This document shows positions 11,262-16,692 of a stretch of DNA of 64,000 bases, in pieces. The notes beneath the pieces were generated by a model that searched no databases, had not been told where the DNA came from, and saw only the letters and a list, made by a program, of their open reading frames with translations. Position 1 is the stretch's first letter; each line of letters begins with the position of its first letter. Made by a program: the position numbers and the translations under genes. This DNA comes from an uncultured Lentisphaerota bacterium (GTDB taxonomy: Bacteria > Verrucomicrobiota > Lentisphaeria > Victivallales > UBA1829), in the NCBI GenBank assembly GCA_900320095.1, contig ONQZ01000002.1:8165-72164 (forward strand), read 5' to 3'.

Positions 11262-11289
11262 ACAATAGCATGAATTCGTGAAAATTCAA
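11262..11289 (-). promoter_or_regulatory. Candidate internal promoter for the SurA-like gene
   Basis: Minus strand: -35 TTGAAT (11289-11284, overlapping the upstream stop codon), 16-nt spacer, TGc-TATTGT (-10 at 11267-11262). Confidence 0.4.
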
Positions 11290-12584
11290 GGCTGCGCGGT
11301 CATCCGCGCCGTAACGGCGTCGGCGGCTTCGCGCAGAAGACCGAGCTCGTCCAGCACGTCCAGGACCGTATAACGGTTCCGGATCAGCTGCGCCGCCAGC
11401 ACGCCGTGTTCGAACTGGGCGGCGTCGAGGCCGATTTCAGCGGGCGCGACCGGGCAGGACGCGGCGCGGAACATGGTTTTCAGCGTGTCGAACGGGATCA
11501 GGCATTCGGCGGTGCGTTTCGCGAGGGCGTCCCAGTGGGCGAAAATGAGTTCGCGGCGCGCTGCCAGAGCTTCACCTGTCAGGAACTTGCCCATCGCGAT
11601 CTCCCCTGTCTTCGCGCCGTAGCATCCGCGGGCAAGCAGCGAATCGACCTCGGCGCGGCGTTCGGATTCCGTGCGCGGCGGCCGGGCATTGGCGCGCGCC
11701 CAGGCGGCATCGCGGCCCTCGAACAGCCATTCCATCAGGGCGGTCGAGGCGAGCGTGCCGATGCCGACCTTGAACCCGTGCGACACGGGGACGCCGTTGA
11801 ATGTGAGGTTTTCCATTTCCCACAGGTGGCTGATCATGTGCTCCGCGCCGCTGGCGGGACGGGATTCGCGGTACATCTGCATGGAGTAGCCCGTGGCGGC
11901 AAGCCCGAGGAAGATCGCGCCGATGTCGGCGGGGTCGGAGATCCACTTGCGCAGGTCCTTCTGCACCAGATCCCACACGTCGGCGCGGATCGGCTCGATC
12001 CCGAGCTCGTCGGCAATCACCCAGTCGGCGCCGCCCGCGACTTTCGCGGCGAGGTCGGCGTAGCCGGACGCTGCCATCGGCGCGGGCGCGGCTTTCAGGA
12101 CGTCGGTGTCGGCGGCGACCGCGAGCGGGGCGAGGCAGGGCAGCGTCTTCTTCAGGCCGTTGTCGGTCATGGCCGCGCCGTAGGAGGTGTAGCCGTCCAC
12201 GGAGCTGGCGGTCGGGACGCACAGGTAACGGTGCCGAGTGACCGCCGAAGCGCGCTTCACGAGGTCGTTGATCGTGCCGCCGCCGACCGAGACCGGCACG
12301 CAGTCGAACGGCATGTCGTCGGTCAGGCGCGGGGTCAGGGCGTTGTCCGCGTGGATCATCGGCACGGCCGGGAAGATGAACGGTTCGTGCGGAGCGAGTC
12401 CGGCGGATTTGAGGATATCGAACAGCGCGGCTCCGGCGGCTTTCCAAGTGTTTTCGTCGGCCACGATCCAGGGGCGGCGCGACTGGAAACAGCGGCGGAT
12501 CAGCTCCGGTACATCGCGCAGCGCGCCGGAATCCATCACGAATGCCTCGGTCTCCATTCCGGGGGGAATCGGCAGTAAGTTCAT
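11286..12584 (-). CDS. Iron-containing alcohol dehydrogenase family protein, sn-glycerol-1-phosphate dehydrogenase-like (AraM/EgsA type)
   Basis: The start is moved to the ATG at 12584 (MNLLPIPPGM), which has an AAGGAG SD 8 nt upstream. The track start at 12659 would overlap the upstream gene. Motifs seen: VGGGTINDLVK, CVPTASSVDGYTS, SGYADLAAKVAGGADW and ASGAEHMISHLWE. Confidence 0.65.
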   Translation of the reverse strand: MNLLPIPPGMETEAFVMDSGALRDVPELIRRCFQSRRPWIVADENTWKAAGAALFDILKSAGLAPHEPFIFPAVPMIHADNALTPRLTDDMPFDCVPVSVGGGTINDLVKRASAVTRHRYLCVPTASSVDGYTSYGAAMTDNGLKKTLPCLAPLAVAADTDVLKAAPAPMAASGYADLAAKVAGGADWVIADELGIEPIRADVWDLVQKDLRKWISDPADIGAIFLGLAATGYSMQMYRESRPASGAEHMISHLWEMENLTFNGVPVSHGFKVGIGTLASTALMEWLFEGRDAAWARANARPPRTESERRAEVDSLLARGCYGAKTGEIAMGKFLTGEALAARRELIFAHWDALAKRTAECLIPFDTLKTMFRAASCPVAPAEIGLDAAQFEHGVLAAQLIRNRYTVLDVLDELGLLREAADAVTARMTAQP

Positions 12585-12600
12585 GTCGAAGGCTCCTTGT

Positions 12601-13890
12601 TTACATTCCCTGGTAGGGGTATCCGCCGGACTGCGGCAGCGGATTGTTCTGAACGGCATTGGCGGAGCGGCGGGCTTTTTCGGCGTCCGCTTCGGCTTTC
12701 TTGCGTGCCTCCGTCTCGTCCGCGGCGCGTCTGTTCGCGGCGGCGAGCTCGTTGGAAAGGGTCTGATTCTTTTCGCGAAGGTCCGCGATCTTGCCGGAAA
12801 CGACGTTCAATTCTTCGTTGAGCTTGTCGACCTCTTTGCCGCGTTCGGTCTGGGCGGCGAGTTCCTCCCGGAGCTTACGAATCTCCTCGTCACGGGCCGG
12901 CTCGCTTTCGGCGGCCTGCTTCAGGCGTTCCTGAAGGGACTCGATCTGCTGAATGAGCTTGAGGCGTTCGGCGGCGAACTGTTCCTTTTCGAGGGCGATC
13001 CGCGCCTCGAACTGCGCCTGCTGCGCCTCCATCGCGGAGCCGTTGGCGCGTTTCATCTCCTCAATCGCAGCATCGAACGCCGCACGCTGGGCGGGGAGGT
13101 CGGCGCGGAGCTTCTGAAGCTCGTCGTTCATGCCGGACACGCTGCCCGCGAGATTTGTGACGCGCCCCTCCATGCCGGACACGCGCCCCTCCATGCCGGA
13201 CACGCTACCCGCGAGACCGGACACGCTGCCGGAAAGATTGCCGACGTCGGTGCGAAGGGCGTTTTCGCGCGTTTCCGAGCCCGCGGTGAGCGCGGCGATC
13301 GCGGACGCGGCGTCGCGGCTGGCGGCGGTGTTGTCGCGCTGGACGAGGAAGTTCACGTAGAAGAGCGCCAGCAAACCGGCCAGGACCACAATGATCATGA
13401 CCGCCACGGCGAGCATTACGCGCAGACGCCGCGCGGAGACGTCGGCTTTTTTGTTGACCGCGCTCATGGCATCGCAGAGGTCGGTGAACTTCGAGCCGAG
13501 CAGATCGTACAGCTCGTCGAAATTCTCCTGCTTCACCACGGGATAGTTCTGCTGGTCCGGGTTCGGGCTCGCGGCGTCCGGCCCGGCGCCGTTTTCGGCG
13601 GGATTCTGTTCGGTCCCGGAGGCATCCGGCGGCTCCACGGTCGGATGAACCGGGAAGGTGCGTTCGAGTTCGCCGTCGATGTCGCCGATGGAACGTCCGG
13701 CGGTACGGAGTTCGGCGACCTTGCAGAGGACGGAGAGGGTGCGGTCGGTGTAGAAACGGCGGCGACCCTGCGTCTGGAGCTCGATGAAACGGGAATACTT
13801 GCCGAGCCAGTCGGTGATGGTCGTGCGCGGCACGCCGACCTGATCGGCGAGGTCGCTGATCGAATAAAGGTTCTGATTTTCGGGATTCAT
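12601..13890 (-). CDS. MerR-type HTH protein with a single transmembrane helix and a long C-terminal coiled coil (function unknown)
   Basis: 429 aa. It has an N-terminal MerR-like HTH (YSISDLADQVGVPRTTITDWLGKY..GRRRFYTDRTLSVLCKVAELR) and a hydrophobic helix RRLRVMLAVAVMIIVVLAGLLALFYVNFLV. About 240 aa rich in E/K/Q/A/R follow, with 7-aa repeats (SGMEGRV x2 and similar). Its ATG overlaps the ribF stop (ATGA at 13887-13890). Confidence 0.6.
   Translation of the reverse strand: MNPENQNLYSISDLADQVGVPRTTITDWLGKYSRFIELQTQGRRRFYTDRTLSVLCKVAELRTAGRSIGDIDGELERTFPVHPTVEPPDASGTEQNPAENGAGPDAASPNPDQQNYPVVKQENFDELYDLLGSKFTDLCDAMSAVNKKADVSARRLRVMLAVAVMIIVVLAGLLALFYVNFLVQRDNTAASRDAASAIAALTAGSETRENALRTDVGNLSGSVSGLAGSVSGMEGRVSGMEGRVTNLAGSVSGMNDELQKLRADLPAQRAAFDAAIEEMKRANGSAMEAQQAQFEARIALEKEQFAAERLKLIQQIESLQERLKQAAESEPARDEEIRKLREELAAQTERGKEVDKLNEELNVVSGKIADLREKNQTLSNELAAANRRAADETEARKKAEADAEKARRSANAVQNNPLPQSGGYPYQGM
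13128..13232 (-). repeat. Five tandem 21-nt (7-codon) units inside the MerR/coiled-coil gene
   Basis: On the plus strand, catgccggacacgc recurs at 13128, 13170 and 13191, interleaved with gagatttgtgacgcgcccctc and gagaccggacacgctgccgga. The units encode GSVSGLA/GSVSGME/GRVSGME/GRVTNLA/GSVSGMN. Confidence 0.8.
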
Positions 13891-14891
13891 GCTATGATCT
13901 CCTCCTTTGCGGAAGATTGATTTTGTTCAGTCAAAGCGGCGCGGGCGAGCCGGATATCCTCCTGAATACGGGCGGCAAGCTCCTCCGGCGAGGCGAATTT
14001 GCGTTCGCCGCGGATGCGGGCGGCAAACCCGAGCGCCATTTCCTTTCCGTAGAGGTCGGGCGCGCCGTCCGTCAGCAGATGCGCCTCCACGCGGACCTGC
14101 CCGCCGTTGCCGTAGGAATCGAACGTCGGCGAGACGCCGATGTTCACCACGGCGGGGAAACGTTCGTTTCCGACGACCGCGAATGCCGCGTACACGCCGT
14201 TCGCCGGGAGCATGCCGCAACGCACGTCCAGGTTCGCCGTCGCGCAGTGCAGGGTGCTTCCCGCGACGCCGTAGCCGCTGACGACCACGCCCGAAACGGC
14301 GGGCCGCCGTCCGAGACAGTGCGCGGCAAACGCCACGTCGCCCGCGGCGAGCGCCTCGCGGATCTTCGTGCTGCTCACGATCCCGCGTTCGTCGCGGATC
14401 TCCGGGACCGCGCGGCAAATAAAACCGAACTCGTTTGCGCGCTGCTGCAGGAATGCGATGTCCCCTGCGCCGCGCGCGCCGAACCGCCAGCGGGAGCCGA
14501 CGCAGACGCCGCGGACGCGGACCGGGCCGGAGAGCAGGCAGCGCGACAGGAAATCCCCGGGCGAAAGCGAGGCGAACTCCCTCGTGAACGGCAGGGAGAC
14601 CACCGCGCGCACGCCGAGCGAGGCGAGGATGCTGAGCTTGCGTTCGCGGGACATCAGGAGCGGGGGCGGATTGTCCGGGTTGAGGACGGCGCGCGGATGC
14701 GGCTGGAAGGTCAGGACGGCGGGAGCTGCGTTCAGACGGCGGCTCTCCTCCAGCATGGCGCGGACGACCGCCACGTGCCCGCGGTGCAGGCCGTCGAACG
14801 TGCCGATCGCGAACACGGCGTCGCGGATGCCGTGTTCCGCCAGTCCGGCGGGCGCGTCGCAGCAGATAAGTTCAGAGGAATTCCAGTTCAT
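13887..14891 (-). CDS. ribF: Bifunctional riboflavin kinase / FMN adenylyltransferase
   Basis: 334 aa. The N-terminal FAD synthetase motif is FAIGTFDGLHRGHVAVV. A C-terminal riboflavin kinase domain is present (…GVSPTF…VEAHLL…). Confidence 0.9.
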   Translation of the reverse strand: MNWNSSELICCDAPAGLAEHGIRDAVFAIGTFDGLHRGHVAVVRAMLEESRRLNAAPAVLTFQPHPRAVLNPDNPPPLLMSRERKLSILASLGVRAVVSLPFTREFASLSPGDFLSRCLLSGPVRVRGVCVGSRWRFGARGAGDIAFLQQRANEFGFICRAVPEIRDERGIVSSTKIREALAAGDVAFAAHCLGRRPAVSGVVVSGYGVAGSTLHCATANLDVRCGMLPANGVYAAFAVVGNERFPAVVNIGVSPTFDSYGNGGQVRVEAHLLTDGAPDLYGKEMALGFAARIRGERKFASPEELAARIQEDIRLARAALTEQNQSSAKEEIIA

Positions 14892-14901
14892 ACACGCACC
14901 G

Positions 14902-16524
14902 TCACGGCTTCTTCCTCATGGAACCGTCCGTCTTTCCGGTTTCGTTCTTTTCCTGGCCGGGACTGACGAAAAAAACCTTGTCCGGACTTTCCAGCCGCAG
15001 GGAAAGACCTGTGTTTTTGCAGATGAGCTGAAGCATTTCGTAGAGAGAAACATTCTCGGAAACAAGCGTAATGGGCATTTCAGGATACTTTTGGGGGAGG
15101 CTGATCCGAATGCCTTTGCCGCCGGGATCCAGCTCTTTGCTTTTTGTTGAGATAATACGGACCGCCTGGGCGATAGAAACATCTTCGAGATCAATGGTTT
15201 TGAATTTTGTTCCCTGGAGACGTTTCAACAACGCGCTGTCCGCGGATTCGCGGGACTCCGCGCTGCCCGACGCACTGCCCTGCGCACTGTCCGGGGCCGT
15301 CTTCTTCTTTTCCGGCTGAGCCGACTGACGCACGCCGGGCAGGTAGGAGTTCATCAGTTTCACGATCTCGGAATTGATGCCTGACGCCGTACCGGCGCGG
15401 GCGGCATCCTGCGTGACTTTCGCACCCGCTTCGAGGAGCGCCTTCACCTGTTCCGGATCGTTGTTCGCGATCGCGAGCATTAGGGCGCTCATCTTTTTGT
15501 CATTGGCGACGTTCGGATCGGCCTTGTTCCGCATCAGGAGCTTGAACAGCCGGCTGTTCTTCGTTTCGAGCGCGAGGATCAGCGGATTGACCTTGCGTCC
15601 GGCGACTTCGACCGGATCGCCGATCCCGCGCGGCGGCTGGGCTTCCGCGTCCGGTTCCGCTCCGTCTTCCGCCTCGTCTCCGCGTTCCGTTACGGCCCAC
15701 ACGCCGGAATATTCGCGTTCCAGCCGCACGGCAAGCGCGTACGGCACGTATATTTTGAGCTTGGAAAGGTCGTCCGCGAGGAGGGTCTGCATGTAGCCGC
15801 GTTCGACCGCCTTGACCGACTCCAGGATATCGACGATCAGGTCGAATTTCTTCTGCACGTCCGGGCTGTTCTCCTTCACGAACGCTGTGGCGGCGGGCCC
15901 CTTCGCGACCATGTAGGCAAACGTCATCGCCATATCCATCTCGGTCGCATACATCCCGGTGCGGCTCACGAAATACTTGTCCCACTCGGCCAGGACTGCG
16001 TCAAGCTTCTTCTGCGCGCTGTTCGACAGGCTCCCCCGTGTGTTTTCATACTTGAACCCATCGGGATTGAGCTTGTTCCAGCGTTCGAGGTACGTCCGCG
16101 GCATCACGCTCAGCTGAAGGTAGAACATGTTCACATAAAACTGCTGGGCATCCAGGTCGGCGTCCAGGTACAGGTCGCTGCCGATCCTGCGCTGCTGGTG
16201 CGTGCCGCCGTCGCGGTCATAGACGGTGTCCTTGAAGACGACGCTTCTGATCTGAAAACGTTTCAGAAAAGCGGGATCCAGCGGGTAAAGACGGTCGTAG
16301 AAGTCCCGGACGGCATCCTTCAGCTGCGCCTCGGAAACGGGCGTGCCGTCGGGATCGCGTTTGAGCGGGCGCGACTGGTCCGGACGGATATGGTACAGCG
16401 CGATCTCCCGTTTGTATTCCTTCTCCAGGTCCAGGTCGGCGGCATGAAGAATCCCCAGAGCAGCCATCGTCACGACAAAAACAAACAACGTTCTGATCTT
16501 CATAAGGTTCCTCTGCCGGTTCAT
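14902..16524 (-). CDS. Secreted ankyrin-repeat protein with C-terminal secretin-N0/STN-like domain (function unknown)
   Basis: 540 aa. It has a signal peptide (MKIRTLFVFVVTMAALGILHA) and a ~300-aa N-domain I could not assign. Ankyrin repeats follow (NPLILALETKNSRLFKLLMRNKADPNVANDKKMSALMLAIANNDPEQVKALLEAGAKV), then a Ser-rich linker. The C-terminal ~90 aa (FKTIDLEDVSIAQAVRIIS..ITLVSENVSLYEMLQLICKNTGLSLRL) resemble an N0/STN fold. The gene is visibly less GC-rich than its neighbours. Confidence 0.55.
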   Translation of the reverse strand: MNRQRNLMKIRTLFVFVVTMAALGILHAADLDLEKEYKREIALYHIRPDQSRPLKRDPDGTPVSEAQLKDAVRDFYDRLYPLDPAFLKRFQIRSVVFKDTVYDRDGGTHQQRRIGSDLYLDADLDAQQFYVNMFYLQLSVMPRTYLERWNKLNPDGFKYENTRGSLSNSAQKKLDAVLAEWDKYFVSRTGMYATEMDMAMTFAYMVAKGPAATAFVKENSPDVQKKFDLIVDILESVKAVERGYMQTLLADDLSKLKIYVPYALAVRLEREYSGVWAVTERGDEAEDGAEPDAEAQPPRGIGDPVEVAGRKVNPLILALETKNSRLFKLLMRNKADPNVANDKKMSALMLAIANNDPEQVKALLEAGAKVTQDAARAGTASGINSEIVKLMNSYLPGVRQSAQPEKKKTAPDSAQGSASGSAESRESADSALLKRLQGTKFKTIDLEDVSIAQAVRIISTKSKELDPGGKGIRISLPQKYPEMPITLVSENVSLYEMLQLICKNTGLSLRLESPDKVFFVSPGQEKNETGKTDGSMRKKP

Positions 16525-16579: not shown

Positions 16580-16607
16580 AATATACAACGAAACCGGCGG
16601 ATTTAAA
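16580..16607 (-). promoter_or_regulatory. Candidate promoter of the ank-ribF-merR-like operon
   Basis: Minus strand: -35 TTTAAA (16607-16602), 16-nt spacer, -10 TATATT (16585-16580). It lies about 55 nt upstream of the start at 16524. Confidence 0.45.
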
Positions 16608-16634: not shown

Positions 16635-16660
16635 AAGAGACGAAAGAAAAACCGTCTCTT
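16635..16660. promoter_or_regulatory. Inverted repeat AAGAGACG-N10-CGTCTCTT abutting the pyrH -35
   Basis: Perfect 8-bp arms at 16635-16642 and 16653-16660. The repeat ends 3 nt before the pyrH -35 hexamer, in a divergent promoter region. Confidence 0.4.
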
Positions 16661-16663
16661 CAC

Positions 16664-16692
16664 TTGACGAACGCGAAAAAACGTGGTATACT
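16664..16692 (+). promoter_or_regulatory. sigma70-like promoter of pyrH
   Basis: -35 TTGACG (16664-16669), 17-nt spacer, TGg-TATACT (-10 at 16687-16692). A GGGAG SD lies 5 nt before the ATG at 16734. Confidence 0.65.

Follow-up and report, generated by a model that had tools for sequence, protein, structure and literature searches.

A predicted bitopic membrane protein with a MerR-type helix-turn-helix is encoded with ribF across Lentisphaerota

Introduction

Few membrane-bound DNA-binding proteins are known: ToxR and CadC, whose DNA-binding domains are of the OmpR type, and RacA, RocS, RicO, and Noc, which are attached to the membrane peripherally. ToxR, CadC, and TcpP have a cytoplasmic winged helix of the OmpR/PhoB type, one transmembrane (TM) helix, and a periplasmic C-terminal domain, and ToxR binds direct repeats near the -35 element. 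RodZ is likewise bitopic with its N terminus inside; it has an XRE-type helix-turn-helix (HTH) that binds MreB, a basic juxtamembrane segment, one TM helix, and a C-terminal beta domain (DUF4115). Here we describe a protein, X, encoded directly after ribF in a 64,000-nucleotide stretch of DNA from an uncultured Lentisphaerota bacterium (contig ONQZ01000002.1 of assembly GCA_900320095.1, positions 8,165 to 72,164; this whole stretch is called the window below). It is predicted to combine a MerR-type HTH, one TM helix, and a long extracytoplasmic helical tail.

Enzymes have been paired with HTH domains in several ways. BirA and NadR are enzymes of cofactor metabolism joined to an HTH; GlnR is encoded in the glnRA operon, and glutamine synthetase and GlnR together pair an enzyme with an HTH. 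RibF, the bifunctional riboflavin kinase/flavin adenine dinucleotide (FAD) synthetase, is an ATP-dependent cytoplasmic enzyme. The archaeal protein RbkR is a riboflavin kinase fused to an HTH (PMC5397151). RacA, RocS, and RicO are proteins with a winged helix-turn-helix (wHTH) of the MerR type and a coiled coil that attach DNA to the membrane; the amphipathic helix of RocS can be replaced by unrelated TM domains, and one site that RicO binds lies upstream of its own operon (bioRxiv 10.64898/2026.03.06.710092). ZapT is a MerR-family chromosome-positioning protein of Gram-negative bacteria (PMC7188993).

Results

The N-terminal domain is a MerR-type winged helix

The N-terminal 80 residues of X form a MerR-type wHTH that has the conserved recognition-helix and wing residues of that family. 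The Pfam model MerR_1 (PF13411) matches amino acids (aa) 9-75 with an E value of 9.5e-10 (38.9 bits; the gathering score is 21.6), and it is also above threshold in all eight of the distant family members tested. AlphaFold2 (AF2), supplied with 31 family sequences, models residues 1-92 at a predicted local distance difference test score (pLDDT) of 82 and with the element order α1-α2-β1-β2-α3-α4. The best Foldseek matches of this model in the PDB are all MerR-family DNA-binding domains: CarH, RacA bound to DNA, GlnR, HiNmlR, CadR, SoxR, CueR, and BmrR. The RacA-DNA complex 5i44 superimposes on the model with a root-mean-square deviation of 1.8-2.1 Å and a TM-score on the target of 0.77-0.80. 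Sequence searches of the HTH against the PDB found only weak matches (the phage protein 2ao9 at E = 7.6e-4; MerR, GlnR, and RacA at E values of 0.1-0.9), so the family of the domain was settled by the comparison of folds.

The HTH is by far the best-conserved region of the protein: over 44 aligned members from across the phylum its mean pairwise identity is 48%, compared with 9-25% elsewhere. Eight residues are invariant in all 44 (R22, T24, W28, G42, R44, R62, I71, and L75). They map to the recognition helix (aa 22-31, RTTITDWLGK), the wing (aa 38-47), and the α3-α4 pair, which are the positions where MerR-family proteins contact DNA, as judged from the contacts of RacA. When near-invariant residues are included, the conserved set comprises R22, T23, T24, D27, and W28 at the start of the recognition helix and G42, R44, and Y47 in the wing.

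One TM helix separates the HTH from a helical tail

A flexible linker and a heptad-patterned helix lead from the HTH into a single TM helix. Helix α4 (aa 68-78) is followed immediately by the conserved motif FPVHPTVEPP and then by a linker (aa 81-118) rich in Pro, Asp, Glu, Gln, and Asn, in which pLDDT is below 50 over aa 82-120. The linker ranges from 23 to 77 aa across the family, with 16% identity. Beyond it, AF2 predicts an unbroken helix over aa 122-221 that covers both the juxtamembrane segment and the TM segment; the juxtamembrane part has a heptad contrast of 0.60-0.65 and is conserved in the close clade. The TM segment, at about aa 156-183, is the sole strongly hydrophobic stretch of X (Kyte-Doolittle hydropathy of 3.1 over 19 residues). 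Exactly one TM helix, at around residues 135-200, is present in every one of the 122 family members scored (those at least 250 aa long whose hydropathy passes the threshold), and it is followed by 110-270 residues rich in Ala, Glu, Lys, Gln, and Leu.

The orientation of this helix is indicated by the charges that flank it and by gene fusion. There are five Lys and Arg residues in the 15 positions preceding the TM helix of X and one in the 15 following it; among the 122 members, the count is higher on the N-terminal side in 87, equal in 18, and lower in 17. In addition, RibF is fused to the N terminus of the HTH in some family members (see below), and since RibF is cytoplasmic, the HTH of these proteins would lie in the cytoplasm and the C-terminal domain outside it. 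The predicted topology, a bitopic inner-membrane DNA-binding protein with its N terminus inside and its C terminus outside the cytoplasm, is thus strongly supported. An earlier note, made from the letters of this DNA alone, had proposed a MerR-like winged HTH, a Pro/Gln/Asn-rich linker, one strongly hydrophobic helix after KKADVSARRLR, and an HTH-in topology by the positive-inside rule, and all four agree with the analyses above.

Beyond the TM helix, X continues outside the cytoplasm as a helical domain with heptad periodicity, in which one core is conserved. Over aa 185-415 the heptad a/d contrast is 0.58, against 0.23 ± 0.03 in shuffled sequences. AF2 predicts the C-terminal part as several helices (aa 246-281, 286-329, and 331-414) rather than as a single rod of 240 aa. 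The coiled coil of ~240 aa proposed in the earlier note is thus supported in its heptad periodicity, whereas the prediction breaks it up. Residues 211-254 consist of heptads of the form GxVSG(L/M)x with a perfect a/d pattern, yet their pLDDT is below 50, and their predicted structure is uncertain. At the DNA level, Tandem Repeats Finder (TRF) reports a repeat of period 21 with 3.2-4.5 copies at 13133-13227 (minus strand) that encodes these heptads. Among close homologues the repeat block ranges from none to many heptads, and it varies widely in relatives that are 70-100% identical to X: P0111 is without most of it, and the 485-aa protein P0040 has many extra heptads. The periplasmic stalk of X thus looks hypervariable in length, to judge from these sequences.

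The periplasmic core (aa 255-320) ranks second in conservation in the alignment of 44 members, with 25% pairwise identity and the motifs LxxxLxxQxxxFxxxL and FAxExLxxLxxxE. The linker, TM helix, and distal helices are at 13-20% identity and vary in length. The distal helix (aa 331-414) is predicted with a pLDDT of 75-89 and reaches a heptad contrast of 0.82; the length of the distal region is 10-103 aa across the family. Searches of the C-terminal half of X against PDB, Pfam, NCBIfam, PHROGs, and PADLOC reached no curated cut-off, and sub-threshold matches to coiled coils (Lpp, SMC, Rad50, JetC, and sigma-1) were dismissed as compositional. As for a folded sensor domain, Pfam, NCBIfam, and the other libraries matched no domain family in the tail, where helices alone are predicted, the core at aa 255-320 included.

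The family spans Lentisphaerota

A word-indexed search retrieved 137 proteins, of which the 120 listed are 54-100% identical to X. Nearly all are full length; these homologues align over the whole of X, and the start Met is kept in every one aligned. The few that have been named are annotated only as "MerR family transcriptional regulator" or "hypothetical protein". With residues 1-190 as the query, phmmer was run exhaustively over 1.84 billion cluster representatives and retrieved 224 proteins at E ≤ 1e-3, 171 of them at E ≤ 1e-10; the family comprises at least 170 clusters at 50% identity. Most of these matches are 310-460 aa long, and the alignments span the HTH through the TM helix. The full layout of HTH, TM helix, and helical tail is kept in every full-length member of the family.

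A scan of one genome per GTDB species gave 107 matching loci. The best 80 of the 107 are all from metagenome-assembled genomes (MAGs) of Lentisphaerota: Victivallales, Victivallis vadensis, and Lentisphaera, together with one bin that is labelled Verrucomicrobia. The loci fetched for comparison are about 16 kb each and amount to 1.15 Mb. A scan of viral contigs found no family member, only 28-residue fragments of the HTH, and searches of PHROGs and PADLOC with X returned weak HTH or coiled-coil matches that indicate no meaningful membership. Literature searches on membrane-bound, membrane-anchored, or transmembrane MerR proteins and on MerR proteins of Lentisphaerae found nothing relevant.

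The layout of X thus appears to match no described family found in the literature and, among the matches, to be confined to Lentisphaerota, while its parts are of known kinds. The earlier note had likewise called the architecture undescribed. The empty literature search and the absence of curated matches in the C-terminal half agree with that claim; it has to be qualified on the cytoplasmic side, where RacA, RocS, and RicO share the same order of parts.

The gene is coupled or fused to ribF

The ribF and X genes are co-transcribed and usually translationally coupled across Lentisphaerota, and in one subclade they are fused. In 77 of the 80 loci ribF is directly upstream of X on the same strand, and this holds even for loci whose RibF and X share only 35-50% and 24-30% identity, respectively, with the window proteins. 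Counted from the ribF stop to the X start, the spacing is -4 nt (ATGA) in 24 of the 77 loci and between -23 and +11 nt in most others. The ATGA overlap that the earlier note saw in the window is therefore real, and the linkage to ribF is the most conserved property of the locus. When all flanking open reading frames (ORFs) were clustered, ribF was the sole conserved neighbour of X; the runner-up among real clusters is a prepilin-like family, which is present in 16 of 68 loci.

Three proteins, P0159 (717 aa), P0228 (725 aa), and P0197 (503 aa), are RibF-X fusions, each with FAD_syn, Flavokinase, and MerR_1 matches; one of them has been located on its contig. They are 49-71% identical to each other; the fusion thus arose once and persisted through substantial divergence. 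One MAG, RGIG5364, contains two different ribF-X pairs (L019 and L046), which may reflect a duplicated module or a mixed bin.

The remaining genes around X behave differently. The run ankyrin protein-ribF-X-Fe-ADH_2 (glycerol-1-phosphate dehydrogenase-like)-SurA-like peptidyl-prolyl isomerase-HemN-like is syntenic in the window's own clade; in all more distant genomes its members other than ribF no longer accompany X. Mapping the distribution and neighbourhood of X, as the earlier note had proposed, hence gave a phylum-wide family in which ribF is conserved and the ankyrin gene is not beyond the close clade. A functional unit of X with the ankyrin, dehydrogenase-like, SurA-like, and HemN-like genes was considered and rejected, since their synteny is limited to the close clade; the link to the first three suggested in the earlier note falls with it.

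A clade-specific direct repeat abuts the -35 element of ribF-X

Upstream of ribF in at least 20 distinct genomes of the Victivallales type, we found the sequence aaaTGACGg-N5-TGACG(c/g)-TTGaaa, with a -10 element TATAnT about 17 nt downstream. The element consists of TGACGG direct repeats spaced at 11 bp that abut the -35 element (TTGaaa). Two forms can be distinguished (Table 1): type A adds an inverted copy, CCGTCA, within the spacer, and at some loci another TGACG pair spans the ribF start codon; type B has the direct repeats and the -35 element and no inverted copy. The inverted copies were considered as an RNA hairpin (a terminator or a sequestor of the start codon) and this was set aside, since type B lacks the inverted copy and keeps the repeats and the -35 element, which places the conserved core at the DNA level.

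TGACG-N6-TGACG occurs 26 times in the 1.15 Mb of fetched loci, and 20 of these occurrences are at ribF; the counts for other spacings are 0-9. Scanning the metagenome collection for AAATGACGGNNNNNTGACGSTTG yielded 62 hits. The full promoter context accompanies about 13 of them, and every one of these lies just upstream of ribF-X; the remaining hits resemble chance matches, of which we estimate that about 60 are expected. In the window TGACG-N6-TGACG is not enriched (four matches at one mismatch, compared with 8.3 expected). A search for a shared inverted-repeat operator across all ribF upstream regions yielded the clade-specific element alone.

The family is dimorphic at residue 26 of the recognition helix (window 13813-13815). 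Each of the 22 element-positive loci has Asn there (PRTTINDW); the window clade, Victivallis, and Lentisphaera, which lack the element, have Thr (PRTTITDW). A third group of X proteins has the recognition helix ARTTVNDW, the wing VGRRRVY, and a different promoter. The TGACG half-site is also part of the RacA ram motif (TGACGCCGGCGTCA); that the two proteins share one read-out was rejected, since it is Arg19 of RacA that reads TG and X has Asp27 at this position.

Three-repeat arrays of TGACG-like sequences phased at 11 bp also occur away from ribF. One (L053, ~9159, minus strand) lies between convergent genes, and another (L061, ~4445, plus strand) fronts an unrelated gene's TTGACA -35 element ~0.7 kb downstream of X. 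From their sequence, these arrays could be further binding sites of the same protein, whichever that is.

Promoter, neighbours, and other features of the window

The operon in the window begins at the ankyrin gene, with pyrH divergent on the other side of the intergenic region. A candidate promoter and a conserved upstream block lie in this region (Table 1). An Rfam scan of the entire 64-kb window found no family at the gathering score, and thus no flavin mononucleotide (FMN) riboswitch, tRNA, or other known RNA.

The ankyrin-repeat protein (14902-16524, minus strand) has an N-terminal signal-like hydrophobic segment, and over residues 405-512 it has a weak match, well short of the cut-off, to the Amuc_1098 family of type IV pilus outer-membrane proteins (E = 3e-8). 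It is 413-636 aa long among close relatives and is not beside ribF in distant genomes. The Fe-ADH_2 enzyme (11286-12659, minus strand) is nearest to archaeal NAD(P)-dependent glycerol-1-phosphate dehydrogenase, with 125 bits against an equivalog cut-off of 413. Its gene is called at 432 aa in relatives, which suggests that the start is probably Met26 (12584) and that the 59-nt overlap with X is an artefact of the ORF listing. The cumulative GC skew of the window climbs until ~48-52 kb and falls afterwards.

Table 1. Features of the ribF-X locus. Positions are those of the window; the last two rows name the fetched loci that have the promoter element.
Feature	Position	Strand	Evidence
Protein X coding sequence, 429 aa	12601-13890	minus	ORF listing; ATG start; stop codon 12601-12603
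MerR-type HTH of X	13657-13866	minus	Pfam MerR_1, AF2, Foldseek PDB
FPVHPTVEPP motif, then acidic Pro-rich disordered linker, aa 79-118	13537-13656	minus	pLDDT, family alignment
Cytoplasmic juxtamembrane heptad helix, aa 119-155, C-terminal end KKADVSARRLR	13426-13536	minus	AF2, heptad contrast
Single TM helix, aa 156-183	13342-13425	minus	Kyte-Doolittle, Lys+Arg flank counts
Gly/Ser-rich heptads GxVSG(L/M)x, aa 211-254	13129-13260	minus	21-bp tandem repeat (TRF)
Conserved periplasmic helical core, aa 255-320	12931-13128	minus	Family alignment (44 members across the phylum)
Distal heptad-rich helix, aa 321-414, and Gln/Asn/Pro/Tyr-rich tail, aa 415-429	12604-12930	minus	AF2, heptad contrast
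ATGA overlap of ribF stop and X start	13887-13890	minus	ORF coordinates: ribF ends at 13887, X starts at 13890
ribF (bifunctional riboflavin kinase/FAD synthetase)	13887-14891	minus	Pfam FAD_syn 1e-40, Flavokinase 5e-30; TIGR00083 204.6 bits vs cut-off 184
Candidate promoter of ankyrin-ribF-X operon (predicted)	16580-16607	minus	TTTAAA, 16-nt spacer, TG-extended TATATT; block conserved in 16 related loci
Conserved upstream block GTTCGTCAAGTGAAGAGACGGTTTTTCTTTCGTCTC with inverted repeat GAGACG-N10-CGTCTC	16637-16672	minus	pyrH/ankyrin intergenic alignment, 16 related genomes
Type A promoter element	L045 6942-6990; L022, L024, L026, L027, L029, L033, L034, L038, L048, L050, L060, L075		
Type B promoter element	L042, L053, L055, L064, L070, L072		

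Discussion

We tentatively favour the reading of X as a membrane-tethered regulator of its own ribF-X operon, with the topology of ToxR and CadC, a MerR/GlnR-type fold, and RibF as its partner. The linkage to ribF, the RibF-X fusion, and the private direct-repeat element at the -35 position are what incline us to it. On this model X would form parallel oligomers through its juxtamembrane, TM, and periplasmic helices, and the tethered HTHs would bind DNA at the membrane, so that X would control the ribF-X operon as a membrane-tethered transcription factor. Its operator in one large clade would be the pair of TGACGG direct repeats with 11-bp spacing that abut the -35 element. RibF may act as the cytoplasmic partner of X, by the logic of BirA, NadR, archaeal RbkR, and glutamine synthetase-GlnR, and the periplasmic helical domain may set the oligomeric state or bind a partner in the envelope and thereby gate DNA binding.

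Several observations weigh against a regulator of this kind. The TGACGG element is tied to X by association only, and it is restricted to one clade: The window, Victivallis, and Lentisphaera types are without it despite their near-invariant HTH. The correlation of the element with Asn or Thr at residue 26 is confounded by phylogeny, and some loci with Asn26 have no element. The periplasmic part is without a recognisable globular sensor; its poor conservation outside the one core and its variable length give it the look of a spacer or oligomeriser more than of a ligand sensor. Hallmarks of MerR regulators are missing (the α5 helix, the effector domain, and the 19-20 bp spacer). The TGACG arrays away from ribF, one of them between convergent genes, suit an anchor with multiple sites better than a regulator of a single operon. 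Finally, we know of no dedicated transcriptional control of ribF in bacteria.

The last but one of these points leads to the alternative that survives best, namely that X is a chromosome-membrane anchor of the RacA/RocS/RicO type, whose wHTH would pin a set of chromosomal sites, specific and non-specific, to the inner membrane. We regard this as possible, though doubtful. The TM helix would take the place of the amphipathic helix or the DivIVA adaptor, the periplasmic coiled coil would oligomerise the anchor or fix it to the envelope, and the linkage to ribF would merely ensure constitutive co-expression at a low level. The cytoplasmic half of X is ordered as in RocS and RicO, the RacA DNA-binding domain is among its best fold matches, and the amphipathic helix of RocS can be swapped for TM domains (bioRxiv 10.64898/2026.03.06.710092). 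A phylum-wide family in which the HTH is the most conserved part and a sensor domain is lacking fits a housekeeping structural role, and the phased TGACG arrays in intergenic DNA that is not a promoter (for example in L053) also speak for an anchor. A site upstream of its own operon would set X beside RicO, which has one as well (bioRxiv 10.64898/2026.03.06.710092), and ZapT is a precedent for a MerR-family chromosome positioner in Gram-negative bacteria (PMC7188993). However, an anchor leaves unexplained that ribF-X is the sole gene pair retained across the phylum and that one subclade has the two fused, and a simple anchor has no need of 110-270 aa of periplasmic domain. Membership at the sequence level is also lacking (the NCBIfam model of RacA gives X 23.5 bits against 165), and Arg19 of RacA corresponds to Asp27 in X. 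The two readings, regulator and anchor, are compatible and do not exclude each other.

A more speculative combination of the two, which we think unlikely, is that X forms a trans-envelope link from chromosomal DNA to the periplasm or outer envelope through its HTH, TM helix, and length-tunable coiled coil, carrying RibF with it and reporting flavin status. If this were true, X would be the first membrane-integral MerR-type DNA binder, at once a DNA anchor and a regulator of FAD synthesis in Lentisphaerota, and would parallel the chromatin tethers of the inner nuclear membrane, in logic only.

Another possibility, to which we give little credence, is that the HTH has been exapted for protein docking, as the HTH of RodZ has for MreB. 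X would then hold RibF or another partner at the membrane, for example for FMN/FAD synthesis beside membrane or exported flavoproteins, and the periplasmic domain would position the complex. Rosetta-stone logic supports this, RibF being fused to the HTH in one subclade and the genes translationally coupled elsewhere, and the layout is RodZ-like (HTH, juxtamembrane segment, one TM helix, extended periplasmic part). But the invariant and near-invariant positions of X are the ones that MerR-family proteins use on DNA, the HTH is of the MerR type and not XRE as in RodZ, and Pfam finds no DUF4115; moreover, a disordered linker of up to 77 residues suits reach toward DNA over rigid docking. It is very improbable that X is primarily a structural protein of the envelope, a periplasmic strut like TolA or Lpp with the HTH as a relic of little function: The helical C-terminal composition rich in Ala, Glu, Lys, and Arg, the weak sub-threshold matches to the Lpp leucine zipper and other coiled coils, and the variable number of heptad repeats, which suggests a spacer of tunable length, are in keeping with a strut, but the HTH is the best-conserved part of X and no decaying relic, translational coupling to the gene of a low-abundance enzyme would argue against an abundant structural protein, and Pfam and the other libraries found no Tol/Pal or peptidoglycan-binding domain in X.

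The tie to ribF points either to an unrecognised control of FMN/FAD synthesis or to an unrecognised reason for RibF to be at the membrane near DNA. To the few known ways of holding a DNA-binding protein at the membrane, X would add a new solution, a MerR-type winged helix placed before an integral TM helix and a long coiled coil in the periplasm, kept across a poorly studied phylum of the gut, the rumen, and the sea.

Comparison with known systems

Compared with the classical MerR regulators (MerR, CueR, SoxR, and BmrR), X has the same DNA-binding fold and an above-threshold MerR_1 match. Unlike them, it has no antiparallel α5 dimerisation helix after α4 and no effector domain from any library, and it is membrane integral. 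The promoters differ as well. Whereas MerR operators are dyads within a spacer of 19-20 bp, the ribF-X promoters have spacers of ~16-17 bp, and their repeats are mainly direct and lie upstream of the -35 element and abut it; the window has TTTAAA-16-TATATT. In its lack of an effector domain and its co-transcription with the gene of a metabolic enzyme, X resembles GlnR, which with TnrA is a minimal member of the MerR family.

With the Firmicutes anchors RacA, RocS, and RicO, X shares an N-terminal MerR-type wHTH, a disordered linker, a coiled-coil helix, and membrane attachment, in this order. The attachment itself differs: In these anchors it is peripheral, by a C-terminal amphipathic helix or DivIVA, whereas in X it is an integral, internal TM helix followed by 110-270 extracytoplasmic residues (~245 in X). 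The NCBIfam model that X fails to reach is NF009647, and the profile of the X HTH matches RacA in the PDB at E = 0.49; the base-reading Arg19 of RacA has its counterpart in a near-invariant Asp. X also differs from these anchors in being limited to the Gram-negative Lentisphaerota and obligately linked to ribF.

The predicted topology of X is that of ToxR and CadC, with the DNA-binding domain inside, one TM helix, and a periplasmic C-terminal part, and the 11-bp-spaced direct repeats of the candidate ribF-X element, abutting the -35 position, resemble the direct repeats that ToxR binds near -35. However, the DNA-binding domain of X is of the MerR type by both sequence and fold, its tail is elongated and heptad rich, and it is phylum-wide and tied to the gene of a housekeeping enzyme. 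The likeness to RodZ extends to the cytoplasmic HTH, the basic juxtamembrane segment, the single TM helix, and the extended periplasmic part; the difference is that Pfam finds neither an XRE-type HTH nor DUF4115 in X.

The RibF-X fusions repeat the pairing of riboflavin kinase and HTH seen in RbkR. RbkR is soluble and has its HTH on the N-terminal side of a CTP-dependent archaeal kinase, whereas in RibF-X a bacterial bifunctional RibF is followed by a MerR-type HTH and then by the TM helix and periplasmic domain. X thus has the full set of characters of no one known family, be it classical MerR, RacA/RocS/RicO, ToxR-like, or RodZ, and works like a hybrid of these.

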